From: Escherichia coli
Lineage (GTDB): Bacteria > Pseudomonadota > Gammaproteobacteria > Enterobacterales > Enterobacteriaceae
NCBI RefSeq assembly: GCF_003018115.1
Contig: NZ_CP027457.1
DNA: 64,000 bases
Strand: one strand, 5' to 3'
The notes beneath the pieces were generated by a model. The model had not been told where the DNA came from, did not search any database, and saw nothing but the letters and a program-made list of their open reading frames with translations. A program made the translations under genes and the position numbers. Of the stretch, positions 7,068 to 8,930 are shown piece after piece (position 1 is the first letter of the stretch; the number at the start of each line of letters is the position of its first letter).

Positions 7068-8897
7068 ATGTGTGGAATTGTTGGCGCGATCGCGCAACGT
7101 GATGTAGCAGAAATCCTTCTTGAAGGTTTACGTCGTCTGGAATACCGCGGATATGACTCTGCCGGTCTGGCCGTTGTTGATGCGGAAGGTCATATGACCC
7201 GCCTGCGTCGCCTCGGTAAAGTCCAGATGCTGGCTCAGGCAGCGGAAGAACATCCTCTGCATGGCGGCACCGGTATTGCTCACACTCGCTGGGCGACCCA
7301 CGGTGAACCTTCAGAAGCTAACGCGCATCCGCATGTTTCTGAACACATTGTGGTGGTGCATAACGGCATCATCGAAAACCATGAACCGCTGCGTGAAGAG
7401 TTAAAAGCGCGTGGCTATACCTTCGTTTCTGAAACCGACACCGAAGTGATTGCACACCTGGTGAACTGGGAGCTGAAACAGGGCGGTACTCTGCGTGAGG
7501 CTGTTCTGCGTGCTATCCCGCAACTGCGTGGTGCGTACGGTACAGTGATCATGGACTCCCGTCACCCGGATACCCTGCTGGCAGCACGTTCTGGTAGTCC
7601 GCTGGTGATTGGTCTGGGTATGGGTGAAAACTTTATCGCTTCTGACCAGCTGGCGCTGCTGCCGGTGACCCGTCGCTTTATCTTCCTTGAAGAGGGCGAT
7701 ATTGCGGAAATCACTCGCCGTTCGGTAAACATCTTCGATAAAACTGGCGCGGAAGTAAAACGTCAGGATATCGAATCCAATCTGCAATATGACGCGGGCG
7801 ATAAAGGTATTTACCGCCACTACATGCAGAAAGAGATCTACGAACAGCCGAACGCGATCAAAAATACCCTTACCGGACGCATCAGCCACGGTCAGGTTGA
7901 TTTAAGCGAGCTGGGACCGAACGCCGACGAACTGCTGTCGAAGGTTGAGCATATTCAGATCCTCGCCTGTGGTACTTCTTATAACTCCGGTATGGTTTCC
8001 CGTTACTGGTTTGAATCGCTGGCAGGTATTCCGTGCGACGTCGAAATCGCCTCTGAATTCCGCTATCGTAAATCTGCCGTGCGTCGTAACAGCCTGATGA
8101 TCACCTTGTCACAGTCTGGCGAAACCGCGGATACCCTGGCGGGCCTGCGTCTGTCGAAAGAGCTGGGTTACCTTGGTTCGCTGGCAATCTGTAACGTTCC
8201 GGGTTCTTCTCTGGTGCGCGAATCCGATCTGGCGCTGATGACCAACGCGGGTACGGAAATCGGCGTGGCATCCACTAAAGCATTCACCACTCAGTTAACT
8301 GTGCTGTTGATGCTGGTGGCGAAGCTGTCTCGCCTGAAAGGTCTGGATGCCTCCATTGAACATGACATTGTGCATGGTCTGCAGGCGCTGCCGAGCCGTA
8401 TTGAGCAGATGCTGTCTCAGGACAAACGCATTGAAGCTCTGGCAGAAGATTTCTCTGACAAACATCACGCGCTGTTCCTGGGCCGTGGCGATCAGTACCC
8501 AATCGCGCTGGAAGGCGCATTGAAGCTGAAAGAGATCTCTTACATTCACGCTGAAGCCTACGCTGCGGGCGAGCTAAAACACGGCCCGCTGGCGCTGATT
8601 GACGCGGATATGCCGGTTATCGTCGTTGCACCGAACAACGAATTGCTGGAAAAACTGAAATCCAACATTGAAGAAGTTCGCGCGCGTGGCGGTCAGTTGT
8701 ATGTCTTCGCCGATCAGGATGCGGGTTTTGTAAGTAGCGATAACATGCACATCATCGAGATGCCGCATGTGGAAGAGGTGATTGCACCGATCTTCTACAC
8801 CGTTCCGCTGCAGTTACTGGCTTATCACGTCGCGCTGATCAAAGGCACCGACGTTGACCAGCCGCGTAACCTGGCAAAATCGGTAACGGTTGAGTAA
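7068..8897 (+). CDS. glmS: Glutamine-fructose-6-phosphate aminotransferase
   Basis: 609 aa ORF beginning MCGIVGAI (catalytic Cys2), SIS domains, ends ...AKSVTVE. Confidence 0.97.
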
Positions 8898-8930
8898 TAC
8901 TCTTCATTCATCAAATAAGGGCTGCCATCT
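8860..8930 (+). other. Expected position of the Tn7 attachment site (attTn7) at the glmS 3' end; appears unoccupied
   Basis: Established knowledge that TnsD recognises the glmS C-terminal coding sequence and Tn7 inserts just downstream of the stop; no Tn7 ends or tns genes seen here. Exact insertion point not verified. Confidence 0.45.

Follow-up and report, generated by a model that had tools for sequence, protein, structure and literature searches.

The 3' flank of glmS is the canonical target of the transposon Tn7 (PMC2918618), and a fimbrial gene cluster found directly beyond this gene raises the question of whether Tn7, or any other mobile element, had a part in placing it there. We examined this in one stretch of 64,000 nucleotides (hereafter the window), in which an island lies immediately downstream of glmS as originally predicted: sequence that cannot be aligned with K-12 starts at 8899 and lpfA at 9205. 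Our reading, to which we give a probability of about 85%, is that the window carries an intact and empty attTn7 next to a non-mobile lpfO113 operon, the latter being a diverged haplotype of the glmS-pstS spacer in whose history Tn7 played no role.

The attTn7 site in the window

The window is from Escherichia coli and aligns over its full length with F9792 (NZ_CP024273.1); the two are 99.97% identical, differing by 18 mismatches and one gap. Its gene order is atpHAGDC, glmU, glmS, four co-oriented ORFs (9205..14187) and pstSCAB-phoU, and the PGAP annotation of F9792 at the locus reads glmS-lpfA/B/C/D-O113-pstS. The coordinates of the features are collected in Table 1. Apart from these, an Rfam match to the enterobacterial sRNA STnc410 (187 bits, E = 4.6e-43) was observed on the minus strand at 5295-5452, in the atpC-glmU spacer.

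Table 1. Features of the glmS-pstS region in the window, with the basis of each assignment
Feature	Coordinates	Strand	Basis
glmS, glutamine--fructose-6-phosphate aminotransferase, 609 aa	7068..8897	+	ORF list; Pfam SIS and GATase; PGAP in F9792
attTn7 TnsD-binding part, intact, last 36 bp of glmS (+23..+58)	8862..8897	+	comparison with K-12; site definition PMC2918618
Variable segment ("island"), ~5.43 kb	8899..14328	+	junction comparison with L002 (K-12-type) and ABW_A19 (L005)
glmS intrinsic terminator, lpf-type haplotype; stem AAGGGCUGCC / GGUGGCCCUU, then U-rich tail	8917..8940	+	RNA fold
Predicted Tn7 insertion target AGGGC, stop+21..25	8918..8922	.	calibrated on occupied L005 and L008
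lpfA-O113, fimbrial major subunit, 190 aa	9205..9777	+	Pfam Fimbrial, E = 4.6e-24; PGAP
lpfB-O113, periplasmic chaperone, 243 aa	9825..10556	+	Pfam PapD_N, PapD_C; PGAP
lpfC-O113, outer-membrane usher, 840 aa	10581..13103	+	Pfam Usher, E = 1.4e-186, PapC_N, PapC_C; PGAP
lpfD-O113, minor subunit / putative tip adhesin, 357 aa	13114..14187	+	Pfam Fimbrial, C-terminal; PGAP
Hairpin 3' of lpfD, GACAACGGCG...CGCCGUUGUC, likely lpf operon terminator	14194..14222	+	RNA fold
Right junction, alignable again with all E. coli haplotypes; pstS promoter-proximal repeats GTCATAAAACTGTCAT...	14329..14435	+	alignments with K-12, ABW_A19
pstS, heads pstSCAB-phoU	14436..15476	+	Pfam PBP_like_2; PGAP name

In the numbering of Mitra et al., the TnsD-binding site extends from +23 to +58, which is the final 36 bp of glmS, and the 5-bp Tn7 target is centred 23 bp past the stop codon, while the sequence at the insertion point itself is irrelevant for targeting (PMC2918618). 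The glmS stop codon of the window is TAA at 8895-8897. Within 8862-8897 the sole difference from K-12 is a T to A change at 8885, corresponding to +35 and to the third base of a Val codon, and all the positions described as critical for TnsD binding (+30, 31, 33, 37, 42, 43, 45, 48, 51, 52 and 54; PMC2918618) are the same as in K-12. On the basis of the published mutagenesis, the window attTn7 with its A at +35 is predicted to be competent.

The predicted target at 8918-8922 sits in the 5' arm of the glmS terminator hairpin (-16.5 kcal/mol, z = -4.2), which is intact and whose inner stem at 8924-8936 was also found by the terminator scan. In a scan of the border zones, AGGGC had a single occurrence in 8898-9204 and none in 14188-14435; since the target is single-copy, the site is unoccupied. 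Hence attTn7 is both intact and empty in the window, which bears out the original prediction, and the interval 8860-8930 proposed for it is correct as it covers 8862-8897 as well as 8918-8922. A hairpin homologous to that of the window is present in the common lpfO113 haplotype and in the O157 lpf2 haplotype, whereas the K-12 glmS terminator is a different one (ATGCCCTGC...GCGGGGCAT). An Rfam search of 5000-16000 gave no match at the attTn7 site; a match to MicX at 8904-9008 was rejected with 22.9 bits against a gathering score of 75 and E = 0.14.

In this layout, TnsD is expected to bind 8862-8897 and the resulting insertion to fall at about 8918-8922, within the terminator hairpin of glmS. 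A mini-Tn7 introduced into the window strain is thus predicted to land at ~8918-8922, between glmS and lpfA, and to split the glmS terminator. More generally, mini-Tn7 tagging of lpf-positive E. coli would place the insertion directly upstream of the lpfA regulatory region.

Searches for traces of Tn7

Two Tn7-occupied loci were used as positive controls. In ABW_A19 (L005), glmS is followed by a canonical Tn7 with tnsABCDE and a dfrA1-sat2-aadA1 class 2 integron, and the duplication AGGGC is found at stop+21..25 on both sides of TGTGGGCGGACAA...TTGTCCGCCCACA. In 1EC213 (L008), a 13,214-bp Tn7 lies between glmS and lpfA-O113 with the duplication GGGCT at stop+21..25, and excising it in silico gives back the unoccupied lpfO113 haplotype but for 2 mismatches over 525 bp.

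The absence of Tn7-like ends and of tns genes past the glmS stop, also part of the original prediction, was confirmed by pattern search, blastn-short and tblastn, each with positive controls. The 31-nt Tn7 end pattern gave no match in the window at up to 3 mismatches, and the 13-nt terminal motif was matched 12 times, where 18.6 matches were expected, and never near the island. Candidate end-pattern matches obtained at three stringencies, within lpfA (9413) and at 19613, were at chance level only and were discarded. With 200 nt of each Tn7 end as the query, blastn-short returned just chance matches of 10-14 nt in the window. Over the complete 64 kb, the lowest E-value obtained by tblastn with TnsA-E was 0.19, compared to 100% identity in the control genome.

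The island borders were next compared with each other for Tn7 terminal repeats and for a 5-bp duplication flanking the island, again negative while the controls worked. Indeed, the best inverted repeat between 8898-9204 and 14188-14435, the two border zones, had a score of 18, below the mean of 19.7 for shuffled sequences; the same assay on a Tn7 control gave 28, a value reached by 1 of 300 shuffles. A scan of the same zones for a 5-mer followed by TGT and the same 5-mer preceded by ACA gave no pair, and recovered the true duplication in both L005 and L008. Moreover, a repeat search found no direct or inverted repeat linking the island borders, and no transposase, integrase or IS is annotated by PGAP in the 64 kb of F9792 equivalent to the window. 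Compared to an occupied attTn7::Tn7 (TnsABC+D), the window therefore has the same target intact but no Tn7 ends, no tnsABCDE and no 5-bp duplication, and none of the traces of a Tn7-like transposon or remnant (ends, 5-bp duplication, tns genes by tblastn with TnsA-E or by annotation) was found in it. A classical integrase-mediated island is not indicated either, with no integrase annotated and no direct repeats at the borders; the only island-like trait of the lpf segment is the deviant GC at its edges (0.28 at 8850-9300 in the composition profile).

One further resemblance to a Tn7 terminus was seen far from the locus, at 50210-50250 (TGTGGGCGGGCAA), where the terminal 13-mer occurs with one mismatch 2 nt past the yidA stop. 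We attribute it to chance, since this stretch forms the stem of an intrinsic terminator (GGGCGGGCAAAC...GTTTGCCCGC) with no adjoining TnsB-type repeats.

The lpfO113 operon and the borders of the spacer

The segment between glmS and pstS is filled by lpfABCD, four intact and co-oriented ORFs with gaps of 10-47 bp, which leave 307 and 248 bp of non-coding sequence only and no unassigned ORF space. As in a chaperone-usher operon, they consist of a subunit, a PapD-like chaperone, an usher and a tip or minor subunit, here with a glmS-pstS location and orthology to lpfO113. Both the common allele and Pseudocitrobacter share the conserved hairpin that follows lpfD (-18.8 kcal/mol, z = -5.5). The island is the published lpfO113 ("lpfB1") operon at glmS-pstS, related to O157 OI-154/lpf2. 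Indeed, lpf has been described between glmS and pstS in SE11, E24377A, SMS-3-5 and O157 Sakai (PMC2608844), and a four-gene "lpfB1" related to O-island 154 is found at glmS-pstS in phylogroup B1 STEC (PMC6033998). What the window displays is therefore already known: both the fimbrial operon and its locus have been described before, and an empty attTn7 next to them is nothing unusual. The additions made here are modest: the exact borders, the swapping of the spacer as a unit together with the glmS terminator, the conservation of the arrangement across genera and the co-occurrence of Tn7 with lpfO113 at background rate.

The window has the same four genes, order, position and junctions as the lpfO113/"lpfB1" operon of LEE-negative STEC and phylogroup B1, but its allele is rare. 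The four-gene operon was found in 1968 of the 5426 complete E. coli genomes, and the allele of the window (at least 99% identity) in only 14 of them. Against the common lpfO113 allele, the island is 74-96% identical (87.7% overall; 11-13% diverged) while the flanks are mostly at 98-99%, and these steps in identity fall exactly at both island borders. Such sharp steps are the pattern expected of old diverged alleles lying in flanks that have been homogenized through recombination. Intermediate lpf allele classes were seen in the left-end search, with 231 records at 90-95% and 228 at 80-90%. Within glmS, the identity to the strain with the common allele falls to 91.5% in one 200-bp bin (7400-7599) compared to 96-99% elsewhere, and this dip may be a small recombination tract.

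Two more distant relatives occupy the same locus. O157:H7 O-island 154/lpf2 shares with the window its position, a homologous glmS terminator hairpin and a chaperone-usher operon of the lpf type, but it has five genes (lpfA2 B C D D') and a 700-bp upstream region, and its lpfC and lpfD are ~61% identical to those of the window at the nucleotide level. EAEC 042 likewise has an lpf operon beside glmS, accompanied at the same glmS-pstS locus by the Tn21-like Tn2411 (PMC2990770); unlike EAEC 042, the window lacks both a Tn21-like element and an integron, and lpfD is directly followed by pstS.

At the left border, homology to K-12 (L002) stops one base past the glmS stop (GAGTAAT|). At the right one, the junction holds a direct repeat spaced by 22 nt (D18), and we take these repeats of the pstS promoter to be Pho boxes. 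Upstream of the pstS promoter, the opposite strand of 14248-14275 (CATCATGACAAAAAAATGACATCAC) contains two TGTCAT motifs 11 bp apart; this stretch resembles a Pho box in inverted orientation and is conserved in the common allele and in Pseudocitrobacter.

Between these borders, the window segment stands in place of an unrelated spacer of ~207-209 bp in K-12 and of 164 bp in ABW_A19. These two short spacers are related to each other (z = 13.9) and show no significant similarity to either lpf border zone (z from -1.0 to 2.5). A weak similarity of the ABW_A19 spacer to the sequence past the lpfD hairpin (CCTCAC..CGT.TCATCTT.AGC.ATTTT), whose score was reached in 12-22 of 300 shuffles in three ABW comparisons, was left out when placing the right border. 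Given that the spacers are unrelated and that the glmS terminators differ, one spacer replaces the other in its entirety, glmS terminator included, and the polymorphism is not an insertion with duplication. The left break, at stop+2, is 20 bp nearer to glmS than any Tn7 insertion would be. Furthermore, the sequence of the short spacer is not contained in the lpf haplotype, hence a simple deletion does not explain it.

Distribution and origin of the lpf segment

Of the 5426 complete E. coli genomes, 102 show a junction of glmS with the right end of Tn7. In 29 lpfO113 genomes Tn7 lies exactly between glmS and lpfA, with its duplication at stop+21..25, and at least 50 of the 102 have a short spacer beyond Tn7; the typing of the spacer, which covered the lpfO113 and the short types, leaves 23 of the 102 unassigned. 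Occupancy is 29/1968 (1.5%) among lpfO113 carriers and 73/3458 (2.1%) among the other genomes, a difference with an odds ratio of 0.69 and a Fisher p of 0.12, these genomes not being phylogenetically independent. The 29 genomes with both Tn7 and lpfO113 have a T at +35 and the window an A. The counts show that attTn7 is still used by Tn7 in genomes carrying lpf, and that an empty attTn7 beside lpf is the majority and normal state. In the set of EAEC isolates studied by Okeke et al., Tn7 and the lpf/Tn2411 island were seen to exclude each other; at genome scale, this exclusion does not hold for lpfO113. We also observed a Tn7-like element at glmS in NZ_CP178438.1 (H59, JX21CE8), where the junction stretch made of the glmS 3' end, the Tn7 right end and the tnsA start is 85.7% identical to the canonical Tn7 query; it may be a second member of the Tn7 family using attTn7 in E. 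coli.

Outside E. coli, a scan for LpfC with one genome per species recovered three loci. Pseudocitrobacter vendiensis has glmU-glmS-lpfABCD-pstSCAB, with ~82% identity to the window island and ~85% in the flanks. Citrobacter werkmanii has glmS (C-terminus ...LAKSVTVE*), a five-gene lpf cluster and pstS, this cluster being 65% identical at the nucleotide level to O157 lpf2 compared to 61-62% to the window. In Escherichia whittamii (L011), lpfCD is 83% identical, in a recovered locus of 2.5 kb that stops short of the flanks. As in the window, no tns genes are present at the Pseudocitrobacter and Citrobacter glmS-lpf-pstS loci. The search of plasmids and phages for a copy of the island gave no genuine carrier, and four "plasmid" matches, on records of 1.0-4.9 Mb, were taken as mislabelled chromosomes or chromosome fragments. 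From these comparisons, lpf has probably been at glmS-pstS since before Escherichia, Citrobacter and Pseudocitrobacter diverged. The similar divergence of island and flanks between genera is compatible with vertical descent, short of proving it.

That lpf could be what remains of the cargo of an ancient Tn7-like or CRISPR-associated transposon, which later lost its ends and tns genes, is suggested by the standing of the glmS 3' flank as the canonical Tn7 target (PMC2918618), by the 102 of 5426 E. coli genomes that Tn7 occupies and by island edges that are AT-rich like foreign DNA. Yet the left border at stop+2 does not match the stop+21..25 of both Tn7 controls, and the 20 bp that an insertion would spare are non-homologous to the short haplotypes. 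Given, in addition, a segment that four fimbrial genes fill but for the two short non-coding stretches, that shows neither an inverted repeat nor a duplication, no fragment of a Tn7 end and no similarity to Tns proteins, and whose tns-free architecture recurs in Pseudocitrobacter and Citrobacter, we consider such an origin extremely improbable. The related suggestion of the original prediction, a former element that was fully lost, is required by none of the data and the position of the left break argues against it; a scarless loss is conceivable, since recombination with an empty allele leaves no scar, so that the loss of a former element is formally compatible with what is seen. An insertion by some other site-specific element, be it an integrase island, an IS composite or a phage, has in its favour that EAEC 042 also holds the Tn21-like Tn2411 at this locus (PMC2990770) and that one genome (H15) has an IS3 element there, which means that the glmS-pstS spacer accumulates mobile DNA. 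We nevertheless regard it as very unlikely: no integrase, transposase or IS is annotated over the 64 kb, the borders are not joined by direct or inverted repeats, no plasmid or phage copy was found, and a divergence of ~12% between alleles and ~18% between genera points to a long residence rather than to a recent mobilisation.

There is also the direction of the change to consider. If lpf is ancestral to Escherichia and its relatives, the short K-12-type spacer would be derived by loss and nothing would have arrived within E. coli. The occupied locus in Pseudocitrobacter, in Citrobacter werkmanii and probably in E. whittamii fits this, as do an island divergence near that of the flanks and the presence at glmS-pstS of two lpf families with ~61% nucleotide identity. 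But the short spacers (164-209 bp) have a terminator of their own and are dissimilar to the lpf borders, hence they are not simple deletions, and the outgroup sample is small and patchy. We hold this to be a real possibility at somewhat less than even odds; it is a sub-case of the preferred reading and not a true competitor of it. With regard to the fimbrial island having come by another route, as originally predicted, the exclusion of a Tn7 origin stands, while the word "arrived" may misframe a layout that is old, being found in Pseudocitrobacter and Citrobacter.

The preferred reading, an intact and empty attTn7 beside a diverged spacer haplotype, can then be pictured as follows. The 5.4-kb lpfABCD is a non-mobile chromosomal segment that lacks transposon ends, repeats and a recombinase and that carries a glmS terminator of its own. 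It belongs to a set of deeply diverged glmS-pstS spacer haplotypes (the short one of K-12, those of the lpfO113 type and that of O157 lpf2), which are most likely old and passed from strain to strain by homologous recombination in the conserved glmS and pstS flanks, and Tn7 had no part in the origin of the segment. Indeed, the same glmS-lpf-pstS layout in other genera indicates that this is probably an old polymorphism, both of presence or absence and of alleles, exchanged through homologous recombination. Spread via glmS and pstS is likely; the mechanism of transfer and the age of the polymorphism are both inferred. The locus shows that an island adjoining attTn7 need not derive from Tn7.

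This may be taken one step further, to a proposal that we make tentatively and with odds below even. The spacer might be a trans-generic cassette polymorphism, with an empty, an lpfO113-type and an lpf2-type cassette each bearing its own glmS terminator, swapped by recombination in the flanks since before Escherichia, Citrobacter and Pseudocitrobacter split. If so, the rare allele of the window would either have survived as a relic or have come in from a lineage not yet sampled, and diversifying selection acting on the fimbrial antigen may have maintained it.

Other observations were made in the remainder of the window. Directly past phoU, at 19543-26297, there are a type III effector gene, a pentapeptide-repeat gene and espY4, where 1EC213 has bglGFBH, and a gene of the ShET2/EspL2 effector family lies at 35840-38011 between mnmE and tnaC (both sets of coordinates converted from the F9792 annotation). 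These effector genes suggest a T3SS-bearing, EPEC/aEPEC-like background. Finally, yidE, at ~55323-56983 of the window (3969689-3971349 of the F9792 record), is annotated as a frameshifted pseudogene in F9792.
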